Shown here: positions 33,329 to 43,259 of the stretch, one piece after another
Numbering within the stretch: position 1 is the first letter of the stretch
Layout of the letters: the number at the start of each line of letters is the position of its first letter
DNA from: an uncultured virus (IMG/VR IMGVR_UViG_2773857995_000001)
Lineage: Duplodnaviria > Heunggongvirae > Uroviricota > Caudoviricetes
Reading direction: 5' to 3' (one strand)
IMG/VR virus record: IMGVR_UViG_2773857995_000001
Coordinates: 1-64,000 of that record
DNA: 64,000 nt
Program-made: the position numbers and the translations under genes
The notes under the pieces: model-generated
Told to the model about the DNA's origin: nothing
What the model saw: only the letters and a program-made list of their open reading frames with translations
Databases searched by the model: none

Positions 33329-34756
33329 CTATAACTTTAACCAGTTTGCGAGCATCTTGTCTTTTGATTTGAAATCCTTTGCGATTTGCGCCAGATAGCC
33401 GCTGATTTCTTCTAAATCTGAAATCGTGTCTTGTAATGAAGCGATATATGCCGCTTCGGCATCGACATCGTAAAACAGCGGATTCCCTTTTTTATCGAAC
33501 GACTGCGCCAAATCATTCAGCGTATTGTTTACATCATCGAGCGTAAGCTGATCGTATAAGCCGTGACCGACCTGGCGATAGGTATCGTATTTCAAATCGC
33601 TTATCGCAGCGTCATGTTCCTGGTAGGCGTTTTCCGCTTCTCTTTTCATCGTACGCAGGTCGTTTATAATCGCATTTACTTTTTCCGCAAGCTGCTTAGC
33701 GACTTCGGGGGTGACTTTAATCGCGCCGCTCCCTGATGCCACTTCAGCCGGCAGCATTGCTTTTAAATTTTTATCGTAGACGAGTTCATCGCCGTCTATA
33801 TTCTTAATATTACCGTCTTCATCGAAGGTGAAGTTATTGCTGCCGACCCAGTGCGTATTAGGCATCCCCAAGATTGCTGTCTGAAAGAAGTACGCAGCGT
33901 TTTCGCCAATTTGATCAGTTACTTTGCCTCGCATTCTCATTTCGCGCATAGCATTCGATACAGCAGGATCTTTTGTATATATCGTCGTTCCATTGTGGCG
34001 GTCGTACTCATTCCACCAACCGGCTCCGATCATATCATCCGGATTTACGATCGACTTTACATACCGGTTGTATTCACCGTTATTGATTTCCTTTTGCTTT
34101 TCTTCGGAATGTAATTTAACGACGGAGGGATTGTTGAATGCGACGGCATAGATATCGTTGTTGACCGCACTGTATTCCGCTTCTGCACCTCCGAGTGAGT
34201 GTCCAGTCGTTGAAATGATCGTCGAGGTGCCTTTATATTTTTGTTTGATTTCTCTTATAAGATCGTCGGCTTGACCGATTTGGGACGGTTTTGTAATCAA
34301 TTTGTAGTTACCGGTGCTAAGCATAGCGTCTTGTGAGGGTGTGGAATTGTATTTTCCCAGTGTTTTGGATGTATCTTTCGCATCTTTTTCGATTATATAA
34401 TGCGTTTTCTTTTTTGGATCTTGCCCCATCACGATATTTCCACCGTCTGCTTTTACTAAGTCATCGATCGGGTCCTTTCCGGCGTCAGTACCGGCGAAGG
34501 CTACGACGACGTTTTTGGGGTTATCTGATTTAACCCACTTTCCGTTTTTCTCTTCGGCTTGTGACAGAACAACCGCATCAAGTCCGGTATCGTCATCCGA
34601 CTTAATTTTTTCAACATACCACCGAGAAGAACTACTCGTCGTTAAAGGTCTATTTTCTTTTAATGATTTTTTGATTTTGTCATAGTTATAAGAAAACCTA
34701 CTTAAATAATAATATTCTTTATCGCTAATGTTTGGAATATCGATATTCTTAGGCAT
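33329..34756 (-). CDS. Lipase-family putative toxin with C-terminal WXG/LXG-like helical domain
   Basis: VVAFAGT; TGHSLGGAEA; VAFN; DMIG; C-terminal SGAIKVTPEVAKQLA...IAKDFKSKDKMLA; GAGGTG SD before ATG 34756. Confidence 0.75.
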   Translation of the reverse strand: MPKNIDIPNISDKEYYYLSRFSYNYDKIKKSLKENRPLTTSSSSRWYVEKIKSDDDTGLDAVVLSQAEEKNGKWVKSDNPKNVVVAFAGTDAGKDPIDDLVKADGGNIVMGQDPKKKTHYIIEKDAKDTSKTLGKYNSTPSQDAMLSTGNYKLITKPSQIGQADDLIREIKQKYKGTSTIISTTGHSLGGAEAEYSAVNNDIYAVAFNNPSVVKLHSEEKQKEINNGEYNRYVKSIVNPDDMIGAGWWNEYDRHNGTTIYTKDPAVSNAMREMRMRGKVTDQIGENAAYFFQTAILGMPNTHWVGSNNFTFDEDGNIKNIDGDELVYDKNLKAMLPAEVASGSGAIKVTPEVAKQLAEKVNAIINDLRTMKREAENAYQEHDAAISDLKYDTYRQVGHGLYDQLTLDDVNNTLNDLAQSFDKKGNPLFYDVDAEAAYIASLQDTISDLEEISGYLAQIAKDFKSKDKMLANWLKL

Positions 34757-34806
34757 GTACAACACCTCAACTCTAATGTAAAATTGTTTTAGGAAAGGAT
34801 GAGTCT

Positions 34807-35127
34807 ATGAGAAAATACATAATTATCCTAATCTCCATCGTAATTATAACATTTGGAGGTATTTACATGAAGCACCAACACGATCAAAAAGTAGCAGAAA
34901 CCGAGTTGTTTAATCAGGCTAAAACTAAGATGAAAACTTTTTTAGAAAAAAACTATAAAGATATTAAAGAAATAAATTTTTCGGATTCATATGACATAGA
35001 CCCTATGGGCGGGATAACTGTAGAAGGATATATAAATGGGGATAAAAATAAAGAGTTTTTCGGTACTTATGATAAAACTAACGATGAGATAGGCATTTCT
35101 TCAGTGGACGCAGAAGAGAAGCCATAG
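34807..35127 (+). CDS. DUF1433-like membrane-anchored protein (putative immunity protein)
   Basis: N-terminal TM; FLEKNYKDIKEINF; DPMGGITVEGYING; divergent from lipase. Confidence 0.7.
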   Translation: MRKYIIILISIVIITFGGIYMKHQHDQKVAETELFNQAKTKMKTFLEKNYKDIKEINFSDSYDIDPMGGITVEGYINGDKNKEFFGTYDKTNDEIGISSVDAEEKP

Positions 35128-37371: not shown

Positions 37372-37761
37372 TTGGCTCGGAAACTTAGCGAAAAACAGAT
37401 CGCTGCCATAACGATTTTAGCACAGCCGAAAAGAGGCGGAATGACTTACGATCAGATTGCCGAAGAAGTAGGCGTAAGTAGGCAGACGTTATATGAATGG
37501 CGGCAGAATGATTCGTTTAATGACGAACTAAAGCGTCAGATTATGCGGAACACTCTCGATCGTTTACCGGAAGTAATGGACTCCATACCGGATCATATCA
37601 TTAACGACGGAAATGCTGCGATGTTTAGAACGCTGTTGCAGGCGCATAGTATGCTTACGGATAATGTAGTCGTAGAGAATAAGAACGGCAGCGATACGGA
37701 TATAGACGAGATGAAGGCGCAGATAGAGCGTATGAGAGCGTTGCGTAAGGATGCCGAATAG
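37372..37761 (+). CDS. Putative terminase small subunit (phBC6A51-type HTH)
   Basis: LSEKQIAAI...TYDQIAEEVGVSRQTLYEWRQNDSF. Confidence 0.7.
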   Translation: MARKLSEKQIAAITILAQPKRGGMTYDQIAEEVGVSRQTLYEWRQNDSFNDELKRQIMRNTLDRLPEVMDSIPDHIINDGNAAMFRTLLQAHSMLTDNVVVENKNGSDTDIDEMKAQIERMRALRKDAE

Positions 37762-37932
37762 TAGGCGCAGTATATAGGAAACGAATAGGATACGGAGGGT
37801 TTACGAGGGGTGACGGCGGATATTATTCTGTAAGCTGAAACCTCCTTGCGCGCGACCCTCCGATCACTTTGACGAAAGCCCATCCGTTTATGCAATATCT
37901 TATACATATCGCGCTGATCCTACCGAACATAA

Positions 37933-38121
37933 GAACGTTGATATGACGCGGTTTATACGCTGCATAAATAAAACGAAATACATAACGAAATACAACAACG
38001 AATGAACGTTGATATGACAACGATTGCGATGAACGTCAGTGTAACAGAATCCGATAGTGTTACACTCGATATACAAACGAATGAATACCGGATACACAAC
38101 GAAGGAGGGGGCCGGGGAGGG
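37933..38121. repeat. Repeat-rich region after terS (candidate packaging-site region)
   Basis: GAACGTTGATATGAC twice (37933, 38004); AACGAAATAC tandem; palindrome 38038-38066; G-rich tract 38103-38121. Confidence 0.5.
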
Positions 38122-38200
38122 AAAAACAAAATCCGCGGCTCCAGGCGCATCTTAAACGCGCATATCAAAAATTCACTTTGACTTTGCGGAGGTGCAGCCG

Positions 38201-38425
38201 ATGCCACTAACGATAAACACTGTCGAACATAACTCGAATCCTTGGTCGCATAAAACGCTCGAACAACGCCTAATCGAATCGGGCGCGTATGACCTTCGCA
38301 AGTATCGGAAAATCATCGATCTAGGAAACGGTTATAGTCGCGTCGAACCGTTGTGGACAGACGAAAGGCAGCCGCGATATGGAGATAGCGAAGAGGTCAC
38401 GGAGAAGAGGCGTAGGCTACGATAA
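38201..38425 (+). CDS. Hypothetical protein
   Basis: GGAGGTG SD before ATG 38201. Confidence 0.55.
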   Translation: MPLTINTVEHNSNPWSHKTLEQRLIESGAYDLRKYRKIIDLGNGYSRVEPLWTDERQPRYGDSEEVTEKRRRLR

Positions 38426-38435
38426 ACGATAGCAT

Positions 38436-38534
38436 AACGATTTTCGCACGCAAATTACACGAAATTAGGCGTCTTAGCCTTCGCCGAGGGTATTCGGTAG
38501 GGTAACGGTTAGGAACGCTAATTTCGTGTGATTT
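38436..38534. repeat. Long imperfect hairpin element, copy 2
   Basis: AAATTACACGAAATTAG-GCGT...ACGC-TAATTTCGTGTGATTT. Confidence 0.65.
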
Positions 38535-38588
38535 TATACGTACCGGGCGCGTACCTCCTTACATGGGGCATTGAAAACCGCGCGAAAT

Positions 38589-38943
38589 AAGAGGCGAGCG
38601 TTCGGAGCGCTTAACCTGACAAGAGCAACAGAAACGGCCTCGCGGAAGGATTATAACCGGTCTTACCTTCCGAAAAACCACGTCGCCCAGCCTTGAGGCG
38701 GCGGGTGTTAATATTCAGTACGTTCATTTCTTTGCAGAATGAGCACGTATCAGGAGTGACGGGGTGGCCGTCCCTACTGTACGTTCCGCAGTCCGGACAC
38801 GCTGGTCTTGCGGATACAAGGATTGAAAGCAGCATTCTCTGGCACCTTCTTACCGGCGGTTTACCGGATTCGCGGGTCCGGTAGAAGTCCGTCTTCCCAA
38901 ACTACACTCGCATATATTTTGGGAAGGCAGACCTCGCCTCTTT
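38589..38943 (+). ncRNA. Candidate ~350-nt multi-stem structured RNA
   Basis: Closing helix AAGAGGCGAG/CTCGCCTCTT enclosing about eight hairpins; G-U pairs mostly favour the + strand. Confidence 0.6.
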
Positions 38944-39100
38944 CGCCCTCATATTTTCTAAAATATTTACCATTCGCGCTTTTAAATCTTTCGAAAATAG
39001 CGAACAGATGGTATAATATTCCCTGAGAGGGTATATACTAGCACAAGCTGTATTCAAATCAGGAGGTGCTGGGTATATGAGAAAAGAGGGGGAGAAAGAT

Positions 39101-39241
39101 ATGAACGCATTAGCTTCAAAGAATTCCTTCAAGCCTTTGGATAAAAAGAAAAAAGCGTTATTAAAGAAATTCGTCGGTAGCTCATCATCAAAATTAGATT
39201 TGAACAAGGTCAGAGATTCCTGGAAATATGATAAAGATTGA
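39101..39241 (+). CDS. Small basic protein, putative antitoxin (46 aa; 54 aa from ATG 39077)
   Basis: GGGGAG SD; overlaps PIN start; TGgTATAAT promoter at 39009-39017. Confidence 0.6.
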   Translation: MNALASKNSFKPLDKKKKALLKKFVGSSSSKLDLNKVRDSWKYDKD

Positions 39242-39797
39242 TTTTAATCGGAATTTTCGAGGGTTTTCCAATAAAGAGAAAATCTTGTTAGACACAGGCA
39301 TTATACTCGCTCTGGCAAATGAGTATGATGCTTGGCACAACACAGTCAATAACCTCTTTGAAACTCACATTTTATCTGATGAAGACGATGAAAACAGTAA
39401 AGCGATTTTTCTTTTTGTTAATCCATTAATTATTAACGAGGTAACCCATCTAGCAGGTCGTCCTCTTGAATCTTACCGAAGAAAGAAACCCAAGGAAGAC
39501 TTTTCGAACATCAACCCTGAAAAAGTGGTCGATGAAACTATCAGCAACATAGAAGAGTTAATAGATAGTGAGGTTTTTCTAGTAATTGACGGAAATAGAG
39601 AGGCGGTTATGGAGCAGTTCAAGCTCTACAAAGACTTAGGATCAGCTGACGCCGCGAACGTTGCGATAGCAAATCAGCATGGCCTAAACTTTTTAACCGT
39701 AGATAGTAGACTAGCAGAAAACATATATCATAAAAGAAATCAGTTAACGAATATTCATAAGGTATACACTACATCAGGTAAGCACAGAACTTATTAA
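39228..39797 (+). CDS. PIN-domain (VapC-like) ribonuclease
   Basis: ILLDTGII; IINEV; GSADAANVAIA; FLTVDSRL. Confidence 0.85.
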   Translation: MIKIDFNRNFRGFSNKEKILLDTGIILALANEYDAWHNTVNNLFETHILSDEDDENSKAIFLFVNPLIINEVTHLAGRPLESYRRKKPKEDFSNINPEKVVDETISNIEELIDSEVFLVIDGNREAVMEQFKLYKDLGSADAANVAIANQHGLNFLTVDSRLAENIYHKRNQLTNIHKVYTTSGKHRTY

Positions 39798-39814
39798 GTC
39801 CAACGCAATCAGAA

Positions 39815-39846
39815 CGAGGGCGATCCGAATATGGGTCGCTCTTTTT
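39815..39846 (+). terminator. Rho-independent terminator
   Basis: GAGGGCGATCC-GAATAT-GGGTCGCTCTTTTT. Confidence 0.8.
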
Positions 39847-39926
39847 GTGCTTGCGTTTTTTAGCGCAACAGAAAAGCGGCTTGCAAGATGCATGTCGCTT
39901 TATTAACGAAAAAGGAGACGATGTGA

Positions 39927-40259
39927 ATGGCGGTATCAAAGCGCGAATCAATCGGAGAAATCAACGTAAAAGTAAACGTGGAGGTATCCGAAGCCATAAC
40001 CGGACTCAAGGCGGTTCAACGCGAAGCAAAGGCGGCGACTAAGGCGCTGGCTGAATTGCGGGAGGAACAGGTGGAGATTAGCGTTGAAGAGGCGGCGCGT
40101 ACTCTCGAAAAAGCTCTCGGAAATACTAAGGTGGATGTGTCTCAGTTAGCAGAAGCGCTTCGAATACTCACTCCTAGCGAAGTTTATCGCGTTAGTGCGC
40201 AAGAAGCCGGGGAATCTTTGCGGAAACTTTTCGATGAAATCAATAGAGGCGAGCGTTGA
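39927..40259 (+). CDS. Hypothetical phage protein
   Basis: AAAGGAG SD. Confidence 0.65.
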   Translation: MAVSKRESIGEINVKVNVEVSEAITGLKAVQREAKAATKALAELREEQVEISVEEAARTLEKALGNTKVDVSQLAEALRILTPSEVYRVSAQEAGESLRKLFDEINRGER

Positions 40260-40540
40260 TGGAATTCGTAGTCATGATCGTGGATACACCGGATCAGGCG
40301 CGGATTATCGAAAGCGTATTTAAGGATCTCGACAATGATCGAATGCATTTCCGAGCCTTAGCAGTAGGGCAGGCAGCGGTCGGATGGCAGTTTAAAGGAT
40401 CGCGGCCAACCACGGTTATCCTTGCGTATAGTGAACTTAAAACGGATCAGGAGAAGAAATGGGAGCGGGAGGTCGTCGGAAACCTCGGATATGCAGACGA
40501 ACATCCTACGAGGCAGACGAAATGGGTTTCGCTTCTGTAA
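40256..40540 (+). CDS. Hypothetical phage protein
   Basis: Overlap-coupled ORF. Confidence 0.6.
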   Translation: MMEFVVMIVDTPDQARIIESVFKDLDNDRMHFRALAVGQAAVGWQFKGSRPTTVILAYSELKTDQEKKWEREVVGNLGYADEHPTRQTKWVSLL

Positions 40541-40559
40541 ACGAAAAAGCACCGAAGTC

Positions 40560-41114
40560 TTAAACCTCGATGCTTTCGTAAGCTTCCGATATCTCATCGG
40601 CCGTAATTCCGATATATCTCAACGTCTCACGCTCGCTTGAATGGTTGAGTATCGACATAATGCGCGTGATATCAACGCCATTCTCATATAGGCGGTATCC
40701 GAACGTCTTACGAAGCGAGTGCGTGCCGATGCCGCCGATCTTTTCGTAAATTCCGGCCCGTTTCGATGCGTCGTTTAAGATACGATAAGCCTGAACGCGG
40801 GTGATCGGCTTGCCTCCTCCTTGCCGGCTGGCAAAAACGTAATCGTCATCTGCTACGTCGTTGCTTATATATTCTTTAATTTCGCGTTTAACTGACGGAC
40901 TGAATGTAATCACACGTAATTTCTTGCGCTTTTTTTCTCGTATGTGTAACAAATCTTGGCCGCGGAGATCCCCGACTTTAAGCGTCAATAAATCGCTGAT
41001 ACGCAAGCCAAAAGCGGTGCCGAGTGTCAATAAAAGACGATTGCGGCCGTCCAGTGCGTTCTTCATTTTATTAAAATCGCGTTTTGACTTAATCGGGAAT
41101 ACTTCGTTTGCCAT
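40560..41114 (-). CDS. Minimal tyrosine recombinase (catalytic domain only)
   Basis: GLRISDLL; EKK; HSLRK; LNHSS; LRYIG catalytic residues; own promoter TTGACT-17-TAATAT (41185-41157). Confidence 0.9.
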   Translation of the reverse strand: MANEVFPIKSKRDFNKMKNALDGRNRLLLTLGTAFGLRISDLLTLKVGDLRGQDLLHIREKKRKKLRVITFSPSVKREIKEYISNDVADDDYVFASRQGGGKPITRVQAYRILNDASKRAGIYEKIGGIGTHSLRKTFGYRLYENGVDITRIMSILNHSSERETLRYIGITADEISEAYESIEV

Positions 41115-41212
41115 TTCGTTCACTCTCCGTAACATAAAAATGATTTTGTTACACTCATATTAACGAAAAATATAACGAAAGTCAATACGAAAAATGAAAG
41201 GAGGTAATGTAG

Positions 41213-41507: not shown

Positions 41508-43259
41508 ATCGCATGGGTTGATGGTCGTTGGCTGAAGCGGGATGAACGCGAAGAACTCATCAACGTATTAACCGAATACCTGGACGCTCTCGACGAAACT
41601 TACGGCGATGACATTCCTGCGTCAGAGATCGCCGACTATTACGAAAAAGCGACCGAACTAGAACGTCTTAAACGGATTCATCGATGCGAAGGTAATCTAC
41701 TCGAATTCTCTATCGAATACTTCTCGGACGCACGCAACCCGGACAATGAGGGGAATTGGGAGGGATTCGATGTTACTTGCGTAGAGGAGGCTCCGGAGTT
41801 TCATCGTGAGATTACCGCCATAATGAATCGAGTTTCCAATGTTGAGACGAATGCGAAAGTCGCAGTCGCGGCGCCACGTTCGCACGCCAAGTCGACGTAT
41901 CTTTCGAAAGCCTTTCCGGTTCATGAGATTGCATATAGGCGACGGAAATACGCGATTATTATCTCGGAAACTCCAGATGTAGCGACGAAGAATATGGAAT
42001 GGATTCGAAATCAATTGAAATTCAATAAAAAATTTCGGGAGGATTTCGGGCCATTACTTTCTCCGAAAGATCAATCCAATATCATCGATAATTCAAGTGC
42101 ATTTATCGCTTGGTATCCTGATGGAGATAGTCGTAAACAGTTATCCTTGGTCGAGGCTGCTTCAACCGGCCAGGCATTGCGGGGACGTAACTGGAACGGT
42201 AGTCGTCCAGATTTAATAGTGCTAGATGACTTGGAAGATGCAAGACCTGGGGGAAATGCCAGCACGCCAGAACAACGTGCTAAATTAAAAGACTGGTTTT
42301 CTCAAACGGTTATTCCGTTAGGTGACCCAAAAGGTAAGAAAACAGCGTTTGTTTACATGGGAACCACGGTACACCAAGATTCAAACTTAATGAATGTGCT
42401 GCATAATAACCCCGACTTTGAATCAAGGATATTCCGTGCAATAATTTCACACCCAACACGATCGGATCTTTGGGAAGAATGTCGTTTAATTTATACCAAC
42501 AGAGAAAACAAAAAACGAAAAAAAGAGGCGGAAGAATTTTATAAGAAACACGAAAAAGAAATGTTAGAAGGGTCTAAAGTCCTTTGGGTTGAGGCGCAGC
42601 CGTTATTCAAGTTGATGAAATGGAAATGGACGTACGGATCTAAAGCGTTCAATACCGAGTACATGAACAACCCGATCGACGAGGAATCGATGATCTTTAA
42701 TCCGGAAAAATTCACGTATCACAACGGAAATATCGACTATATGAAGTATGACGTTTCTCTCGCGGTAGACTTCGCGATGGGGAAAGAACGCGGAGACTAT
42801 TCCGCAATTGCGATCGTCGCTGCCGATAAGGTTAGCGGCTCTATTTATGTTATAGACACGTTCGGCCAACGATTAAAGCCGGACGAATTCCTGAAGGTCA
42901 TCGTCGAAAAGGTCGTCAAGTATCAGCCGACCATAATCGCGGCAGAAGCACAGGCGGCGCAAGAATTCTTCGTCGATGAGCTGAAAAAACAGCTTACACA
43001 CGCTGGCTATCCGGCAGACACTCGTGTCAAGAAAGTAAAACACCGCAGCCGAAAAGAGCTACGTATCGAGGCGATGTTGCCTTCGATCGAAAACGGGACA
43101 ATCCAATTCGATCGGAAACACGCGCTTTTGCTTGAACAATTCGAGCAGTACGGTACGGGCGCCCACGATGACGTTATCGATGCGTTAGAGATGGCGGTTT
43201 CGGCCATTGTGAAGTCGCGTAGAAGAAAAGGCGGCAACGTTGGAAATTACCGTTACTGA
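41508..43259 (+). CDS. terL: Terminase large subunit (583 aa from proposed ATC start)
   Basis: APRSHAKST; LRG; IVLDDLED; VDFA; HDDVIDAL; frame open 105 codons upstream of ATG 41823 back to SD-ATC. Confidence 0.9.
   Translation: MAWVDGRWLKRDEREELINVLTEYLDALDETYGDDIPASEIADYYEKATELERLKRIHRCEGNLLEFSIEYFSDARNPDNEGNWEGFDVTCVEEAPEFHREITAIMNRVSNVETNAKVAVAAPRSHAKSTYLSKAFPVHEIAYRRRKYAIIISETPDVATKNMEWIRNQLKFNKKFREDFGPLLSPKDQSNIIDNSSAFIAWYPDGDSRKQLSLVEAASTGQALRGRNWNGSRPDLIVLDDLEDARPGGNASTPEQRAKLKDWFSQTVIPLGDPKGKKTAFVYMGTTVHQDSNLMNVLHNNPDFESRIFRAIISHPTRSDLWEECRLIYTNRENKKRKKEAEEFYKKHEKEMLEGSKVLWVEAQPLFKLMKWKWTYGSKAFNTEYMNNPIDEESMIFNPEKFTYHNGNIDYMKYDVSLAVDFAMGKERGDYSAIAIVAADKVSGSIYVIDTFGQRLKPDEFLKVIVEKVVKYQPTIIAAEAQAAQEFFVDELKKQLTHAGYPADTRVKKVKHRSRKELRIEAMLPSIENGTIQFDRKHALLLEQFEQYGTGAHDDVIDALEMAVSAIVKSRRRKGGNVGNYRY

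Follow-up and report, generated by a model that had tools for sequence, protein, structure and literature searches.

The interval between terS and terL that a preliminary description, made from the letters alone, had read as one structured RNA of about 350 nt consists of two elements that were joined, and comparison of homologues indicates that its left half is a real and apparently undescribed family of pseudoknotted phage RNAs, outside Rfam 15. We call this RNA motif X; this label, the names alpha to delta for its forms, M1 and P1-P4 were coined in this analysis. It was found in the window, that is, the whole stretch of DNA analyzed (64,000 nt of a 64.5-kb provirus record related to the Bacillus phages phi18-2 and 268TH007). 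With a probability of about 0.35, and by analogy, motif X may be a small stable RNA that is cut from a late leader and serves as a decoy against host RNA-binding defence proteins. The rest of the described interval would be an unrelated minus-strand mini-gene cassette, inserted behind motif X.

Two elements behind terS

The features of this part of the window are listed below.

37372-37761: terS, one flank of the interval
38452-38534, plus strand: long hairpin M1, upstream of motif X; regular-expression match in 19 of 25 related loci
38543-38672, plus strand: motif X, long (alpha) form, a pseudoknotted non-coding RNA recognized by covariation and homologues
38589-38942, plus strand: 10-bp closing helix of the proposed 350-nt RNA, lineage-specific
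38677-38706, plus strand: GC-rich hairpin 3' of motif X, in the window's phage family only
38611-38835, minus strand: zinc-ribbon-like mini-gene (CxxC...CxxC); conserved part 38835-38719, 39 codons
38836-38950, minus strand: structured 5' leader of the mini-gene, with a Shine-Dalgarno (SD) sequence at 38843-38851 and a hairpin at 38862-38883
38882-38889, minus strand: conserved anti-SD-like sequence GACUUCUA of the leader, able to pair with the SD
38884-38935, minus strand: long hairpin of the leader; loop inverted in L033, hairpin deleted in L006
39077-39797, plus strand: 54-aa ORF and PIN-domain ORF (Pfam PIN, E 4e-5)
39802-39857, plus strand: terminator-like hairpin, abutting position 38713 in relatives without the cassette
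40560-41135, minus strand: 191-aa tyrosine recombinase gene, preceding terL

In 25 related loci, the interval from terS to the recombinase gene is occupied by small ORFs and non-coding modules in shuffled order. Relatives break the stretch at 38713/38714: L027, L040 and L053 follow the window as far as 38713 and resume at 39802, and L074, L084 and L473 have the right half with the left half absent. The two halves of the proposed single unit therefore travel apart, one being motif X and the other a separately mobile cassette. The conserved RNA also has other boundaries than those first drawn, as it runs from 38543 to 38672 and starts 46 nt further upstream.

All hairpin stems that had been listed were found, at or within 1-2 nt of their positions, and the perfect 10-bp helix said to close the block (38589-98/38933-42) is present in the sequence. 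Its occurrence is near chance (p ~0.04): of 1000 dinucleotide shuffles, 3.6% contained a perfect helix of at least 10 bp spanning at least 100 nt, as did 12 of 303 real 420-nt segments of the provirus. The helix is missing or broken in L027, L040, L053, L101 and L137, all without the right half, and in L074 and L084, both without the left half. It is confined to the lineage having both halves, with 8-10 bp kept in L006 and L033, and no compensatory change was seen in it among the homologous loci compared. Folding of the block against shuffles gave z values of -2.69 on the plus and -3.52 on the minus strand; since both strands fold better than shuffles, folding energy does not single out the plus strand. 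One plus-strand RNA of 350 nt, closed by this helix and tied to packaging or to the PIN nuclease, could draw on the pairs kept in L006 and L033 and on the helix being predicted with a probability of up to 0.98 in a read-through transcript, in which it would compete with P2 of motif X. However, with halves that move separately, a right half made up of coding sequence and leader on the opposite strand, and a helix of this chance level that does not covary, this model is largely refuted and we reject it as hardly tenable. A packaging role is unlikely because motif X occurs in only 3 of the 25 related loci, which represent the phi18-2-like family, and nowhere in the whole 268TH007 record. The suggested link with the adjacent PIN nuclease is likewise unlikely, motif X being found without PIN in L003, L027, L053, L065, L104 and L129.

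Comparison of homologues assigns 38835-38719 to a protein-coding gene on the minus strand, with conserved SD, start, frame and third-position bias. Codon periodicity of an overlapping ORF had been named beforehand as evidence against an RNA, and this is the pattern seen at 38719-38835, where the three codon positions have 19/18/5 invariant columns of 26. Three lineages keep the SD and the start, and the four cysteines are invariant among homologues, which end after 38-39 codons; the frame of the window extends to 74 aa across motif X. An intact copy is present in L473, and three database homologues of 38-40 aa include one hypothetical protein in B. subtilis. The mini-protein reached the cut-off of no family in Pfam or NCBIfam, a single-sequence search returned no match and INPHARED phages no clear one; matches from the Atlas are leads only. 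Two of the hairpins listed as RNA stems, TACGT/ACGTA and TCCGCA/TGCGGA, retain only 1-2 pairs in L074 and L084, and for GACGG/CCGTC each of the five homologues retains 4-5 of 5 pairs.

The leader folds better on the minus strand in five of six homologues (-65.8 vs -39.1 kcal/mol in L074), the exception being L033, where it is a perfect inverted repeat. Two competing TACCGG copies had been taken for a possible RNA switch; a better fit would be a switch in the leader of the minus-strand ORF, in which anti-SD/SD pairing would lock translation of the mini-gene. The B. subtilis type I toxin-antitoxin systems reviewed in PMC8464778 (txpA/RatA, bsrG/SR4, yonT/SR6) share with the cassette a small ORF and a structured leader; as in those systems, the cassette leader may hide the SD, and a transcript of the opposite strand would overlap the ORF. 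Unlike the membrane peptides of type I systems, the cassette peptide is of the four-cysteine zinc-ribbon type. The 54-aa ORF and the PIN ORF, present in 2 of 25 loci, came in with the mini-gene cassette in the window's lineage and probably form a toxin-antitoxin pair.

Architecture and covariation of motif X

The single copy of motif X in the window is composed of the following elements, all on the plus strand.

38543-38546, plus strand: 5' pseudoknot strand CCGG, pairing with 38657-38660 in the P4 loop
38547-38583, plus strand: P1, stem 38547-51/38579-83, inner stem 38553-56/38565-68
38584-38590, plus strand: A-rich linker GAAAUAA, with AAUAA kept in every form found
38591-38641, plus strand: P2 with insert, stem 38591-95/38637-41
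38643-38672, plus strand: P4 hairpin, loop N-UUAU-N(2-8)-GG-UCUU-N

The alpha order is thus 5' pseudoknot strand, P1 hairpin, AAAUAA linker, P2 with insert, and P4 hairpin with conserved loop. Motif X ranges from 70 to 155 nt, the minimal gamma and delta forms measuring 72-85 nt, and all forms follow a common layout of 5' CC strand, P1, AAUAA, an optional P2, and P4 with an N-UUAU-Nn-GG-UCUU-N loop. The fixed core consists of P1, AAUAA, the loop of the last hairpin (P4) and the 5' CC strand that pairs into this loop. The conserved letters, among them the P4 loop motif, doubled as search anchors and AATAA was part of most search patterns, so their invariance arises partly by selection. Comparison of the forms shows the P1 and P2 inserts to be exchangeable and, at the level of sequence, motif X to be a conserved pseudoknotted RNA module.

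The window copy is without ~20 nt at 38611/38612, a deletion common to L006, L027 and L040. In full-length copies (L033, L137, SPbeta) these ~20 nt complete a 6-bp inner helix and, probably, an inner pseudoknot as well. The inner P1 stem has two broken pairs in the window, with an intact core, and when this copy is predicted alone, by a fold model without pseudoknots, P1 and P2 are not favoured (probability 0.02-0.05). The P1 loop contains ACCUCCUUA, which is a Shine-Dalgarno sequence when read on the minus strand and is followed in most SPbeta-type copies by ATG and an ORF of 9-19 codons. Window-type copies have no start codon after it, and a conserved minus-strand gene at this site was rejected for want of a conserved start codon.

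Covariation was found in the stems of motif X and in its pseudoknot, and is lacking in the 10-bp closing helix. In 18 alpha sequences, 97.5% of cells pair, P1 is 100% paired, and two-sided changes occur in 14 of 30 pairs (P1 3/5, P2 3/5, inner helix 5/6, P4 3/7). This level was reached in 0 of 500 shuffles, a count that is not a probability as the 18 rows represent about three lineages only, and slid controls never exceeded 5 such pairs. Without guidance, RNAalifold predicts P1 with its inner stem, P4 and four of the five P2 pairs, and favours an alternative hairpin over the proposed inner helix. For the pseudoknot, the 5' strand was picked blind to the loop, and 2 of 83 sequences (L099, L224), having no CC in the first 12 nt, were dropped. 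In the 16 distinct combinations of 5' strand and loop, positions 3-4 pair in 22 of 32 cells compared with 13.3 after shuffling, and the third position forms a Watson-Crick pair in 14 of 16 compared with 5.6 (p ~5e-5, relatedness ignored). Some copies, such as L224 and L364, retain just two pseudoknot pairs.

A model built from alpha copies only detects 14 beta copies (E 2e-9 to 9e-4) and, weakly, three gamma copies (E 0.07-0.8), and gave no match on 6 decoy loci. Mixed-form MAFFT alignments were misaligned and were left out of the counts. The structural descriptor passed 79 distinct sequences, of which one was judged chance; L293 and L204, which had passed simple filters, were likewise dropped as chance. 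Wobble pairs lend the plus strand modest support (G-U at 8 column pairs vs A-C at 5), and a stronger argument is that all copies examined share their sense with tRNAs, ROOL, DUF3800-VIII and late genes.

Rfam 15 gave no match at gathering on the window, and the seven matches obtained over 37700-39200 at E up to 10 are all far below cut-off, leaving no credible match over motif X; nor did the beta, gamma and delta copies give a match on the motif. The window holds no tRNA or tmRNA gene by ARAGORN and Rfam, in agreement with the preliminary description. Of the undescribed plus-strand phage RNA proposed there, the structured RNA itself is upheld for motif X by covariation and the Rfam result, and its size and unity are not.

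Phage range, late leaders and module arrays

BLAST matched 29 INPHARED records, and in 25 of them, all SPbeta-like, it linked 38552-38670 to the intergenic region between yonN and yonK; the remaining four match the upstream hairpin only. A pattern scan returned 46 stretches, with 27 true homologues by inspection. Anchoring on the last hairpin uncovered the shorter beta form, upstream in SPbeta, where beta and alpha copies form a divergent tandem, and in the same slot of phi18-2-like phages. Looser scans revealed the gamma and delta forms in the Brochothrix phages A9, BL3 and BtpYZU01/02 and in prophage-like records. In the viral set (112, 80, 25, 64 and 91 stretches) the gain was limited to Brochothrix-type copies and a single further copy of SPbeta type, which for the 91 stretches holds among the 80 of 91 matches listed. 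Model R2 was scored on subsets of the looser-scan loci, and P2-less (delta) copies score just 16-20 bits with it, so that such forms can be missed. Other stretches from these scans, with no P4/P1 or a low score, were judged chance. A possible divergent second copy lies in A9 (L224:1122-1225, minus strand; 22.6 bits).

Matches turned up in 9 of 91 genomes sampled at family level and, in samples of 151 genomes each, in one at order level (model R1), two at class level and four at phylum level. The six genomes with strong matches are of prophage type: G001 and G043 directly, G022 and G023 via an upstream HU-like gene, and G026 and G047 by the tandem beta-alpha layout. The weak matches inspected (E 0.003-0.04), L498 not among them, lie in or overlap ORFs. 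A metagenome scan yielded 28 matches, none above 25 bits with model R2, with which known gamma copies reach 44-53. All clear copies examined are in phages and in late sense, and the known range is Bacillus and Brochothrix phages, within what was searched.

The carriers differ, comprising 130-kb SPbeta-like, 65-kb phi18-2-like, 127-kb A9 and 35-41-kb Brochothrix phages, and no neighbouring protein gene common to these four groups was seen. This distribution shows small structured RNAs being exchanged as late-leader modules between unrelated Bacillales phages. An RNA acting in trans with a job internal to the phage, on a phage late protein, the ribosome or an island RNA such as ROOL, would suit retention in the 25 SPbeta-like INPHARED records, occurrence only in phages in what was searched, and the presence of ROOL alongside in A9. 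We think it unlikely, as 22 of the 25 loci in the window's family lack motif X, as does 268TH007, and the carrier groups have no neighbouring protein gene in common.

The comparison of loci shows motif X, as judged from their sequences, to sit in islands of non-coding RNA heading phage late operons. In SPbeta, Forrest 2017 (PMC5467207) notes, in a passing phrase, 'an unannotated non-coding RNA' downstream of the YonO late start. The beta and alpha copies lie at +280 and +445 nt from that published start, on the same strand; the start was placed in G043, where the primers given in the same work flank the coordinate. The SPbeta pac site, as located in the Kohm 2021 preprint (10.1101/2021.11.22.469490), is between yonR and yonP, away from motif X. 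RNA-seq contigs from four of four RNA runs cover the SPbeta-type alpha copy, contigs giving neither strand, ends nor level. In one run, two contigs fit the extents of beta and alpha (1735-1859 and 1900-2061); they were not counted as evidence, as this run holds two phage variants and the contig breaks may be graph forks. A sigma-70 promoter scan found none upstream of motif X.

The SPbeta-like intervals contain DUF3800-VIII above the Rfam cut-off in five loci and a sub-threshold skipping-rope match, in the yonN-yonK interval (L002:3520-3585; L011, L021); the annotation of the SPbeta stretch includes no DUF3800 gene. In the A9 island, ROOL and tRNAs lie alongside motif X.

In the window, motif X starts 8 nt 3' of the M1 hairpin, a possible processing site. 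The GC-rich hairpin at 38677-38706 occurs in 3 of 25 loci, each time with motif X, which is also found without it. The array itself (37830-40560) lies between terS and a tyrosine recombinase of catalytic-domain size, and the phi18-2 and 268TH007 records start at the equivalent of ~37835-37850, likely the packaging start. A shuffled array beside a 191-aa tyrosine recombinase would accommodate stems that act as DNA, for instance as single-strand sites for this enzyme in an integron-like cassette array; but the pseudoknot covaries, motif X has the same sense as tRNAs and ROOL, and it occurs in Brochothrix phages with no recombinase annotated nearby, which makes such a role very improbable.

Other members of these arrays deserve description. 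tRNA-like RNAs that keep acceptor, D and T arms, and have the anticodon region swapped for variable inserts of tens to >100 nt, occur in L062, L063, L064, L067, L076 and L080 (also L070, L083, L488, L348-L350 and L224), in 6 of 25 loci by regular expression, with no Rfam gathering match in 10 loci scanned; they are candidate decoys or synthetase substrates. A second common module, a CCGGU loop, AAAUA linker and complementary ACCGG, has no Rfam match and is possibly a pseudoknotted RNA. It is present in 6 of 25 loci, and is found in L062, L067, L070, L076, L080, L083, L003 and L129 and in the SPbeta-like L013, L031 and L043. A tRNA-Trp-like element with an atypical D arm, not caught by Rfam at gathering, occurs in 7 of 25 loci (L063, L065, L067, L073, L075, L076, L080). 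In the array of a related prophage, directly behind the mini-gene, a full 5S rRNA copy (L473:1631-1745; Rfam 101 bits) suggests capture of host RNA genes into the array; 38383-38399 of the window is a 17-nt match to this copy. Elsewhere in the window, a strong SD followed by ATC, 315 nt 5' of the listed terL ATG and in phase (41508-41823), is a putative start, and a lipase-like 478-aa ORF on the minus strand opposite a DUF1433 ORF (33329-35127) looks like an accessory toxin-immunity pair that would act between bacteria.

Proposed function and related systems

Motif X is near tRNAs in A9, BL3, BtpYZU01/02 and L258. In the Brochothrix phages, a transcription regulator lies on its 5' side and terS on its 3' side. 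In eight of nine loci it begins 5-6 nt behind a tRNA-like RNA whose anticodon arm has been replaced, in the ninth 3 nt behind it, and a tRNA follows at most ~10 nt after the last copy. Small ribozymes typically have a small invariant core in freely covarying helices and a pseudoknot from the 5' end, features that motif X shares. It might therefore be a self-cleaving ribozyme of a new class, cutting at or just 5' of the CC strand, placed as that strand is behind the tRNA-like 3' end and, in its last copy, ahead of a tRNA. Such a ribozyme would trim the upstream tRNA-like RNA or segment the late leader, as proposed for theta ribozymes and phage tRNAs. We regard this as rather unlikely. No Rfam ribozyme matched even at E 10, Bacillus copies have no tRNA upstream, and L224 and L364 keep only two pseudoknot pairs. 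In the HDV-like layout, two pseudoknots are nested, and P3 and L3 separate P2 from the 3' strand of P1; motif X has a helix of 2-5 bp at the P1 position and, where P3/L3 would lie, only ~5-10 loop nt and no helix. Theta ribozymes (Kienbeck 2024, PMC10879173) resemble motif X as small pseudoknotted RNAs just 3' of a phage tRNA or tRNA-like element, but they have a catalytic C first in J4/2, whereas the last junction of motif X is UCUUN and begins with U. The same source gives a gap to the tRNA of 0-1 nt in 77% of cases, compared with 3-6 nt in the nine Brochothrix-type loci, and no such placement holds in Bacillus copies. In a broader version, a new ribozyme class with a 70-nt core and swappable inserts, placed behind tRNA-like RNAs, would cut the late leader into an island of decoys, among them tRNA mimics with replaced anticodons, RNAs of the DUF3800 type and even a captured 5S rRNA; this version is unlikely as a whole.

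RNase J1 is a 5'-to-3' exonuclease, and motif X might instead be a cis-acting stability element whose pseudoknot buries the processed 5' end and blocks this enzyme, shielding a downstream tRNA or late mRNA. The bases at the very 5' end do pair with a loop further downstream, in most copies after a single-stranded U-rich stretch, and motif X is always followed by tRNAs or late genes of its own sense. However, a roadblock has no need for large conserved alpha and beta inserts or tandem copies, and in L027, L040 and L053 a terminator-like hairpin at most ~45 nt downstream leaves little to protect; we consider this role quite unlikely.

Under the preferred decoy reading, motif X would be part of the late transcript, and host processing of whichever RNA flanks it, be it a tRNA-like RNA, a tRNA or a long hairpin, would release it as a compact RNA with its 5' end tucked into the pseudoknot. 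Late in infection, this RNA would act in trans as a decoy or inhibitor occupying a host RNA-binding defence protein, such as an RNA-gated toxin or nuclease, in a mode like that of pseudo-ToxI of phage PhiTE. The proposal is drawn from analogy with pseudo-ToxI and from the RNA neighbours of motif X, the latter being an argument by association with RNAs that have no assigned function themselves. Patchy presence (3/25) and divergent tandem copies fit an accessory counter-defence element, and a riboswitch is disfavoured by the absence of a consistent downstream gene or expression platform in the loci seen. Several points weaken the decoy reading: a mimic should have a host counterpart, and none was found in the genome samples (no cognate copy beside a host toxin or defence gene in 91, 151, 151 and 151 genomes, with patchy loci and strict filters); and the window copy is without the inner helix, has two inner-P1 pairs broken and does not favour P1/P2 when folded alone.

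As reported in Blower 2012 (PMC3475682), pseudo-ToxI is a non-coding RNA that neutralizes an RNA-gated abortive-infection toxin by mimicry, being a tandem repeat that resembles a known host antitoxin. Motif X, in contrast, has no repeat array and no host counterpart that we could find; it occurs once in the window and no more than twice, as divergent copies, in SPbeta and in Brochothrix prophages.

Beyond the phrase in Forrest 2017, the literature searched held no description of motif X, which earlier B. subtilis sRNA catalogues and the alignments of Weinberg 2017 may list. Six exact motif strings were absent from seven supplement files of Fremin 2023 (PMC10690425), files 1 and 2 lying outside this search. 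With motif X, the 'unannotated non-coding RNA' heading the SPbeta late operon acquires, for part of its length, a defined fold and boundaries, and the function of motif X is testable at once as the host is the most tractable Gram-positive one. Either outcome, ribozyme or RNA anti-defence, would be notable if true, and motif X bears on why phages have tRNA islands with orphan RNAs.

Among known phage RNAs, phi29 pRNA is a Bacillus phage non-coding RNA of a size similar to motif X. Unlike this packaging RNA, motif X is dispensable in the window's phage family, as judged from 3 of 25 loci, and no Rfam match links the two. The DUF3800-associated, skipping-rope, drum and FuFi-1 RNAs (Weinberg 2017, PMC5737381) are, like motif X, small, highly conserved orphan RNAs of Bacillota. 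That study ties DUF3800-I and skipping-rope RNAs to proteins and reports no self-cleavage for them; motif X matches none of the corresponding models and was found with no associated protein domain. ROOL (RF03087) and GOLLD, as characterized in Kretsch 2024 and Weinberg 2017 (PMC5737381), resemble motif X in being phage or prophage RNAs next to tRNAs, pseudoknotted and with no assigned function. They are considerably larger (~580 and ~800 nt vs 70-155 nt) and no covariance-model match connects them, the ROOL match in A9 being at a different place from motif X. With its covarying pseudoknot, a minimal member of ~70 nt would be far easier to dissect than ROOL or GOLLD.
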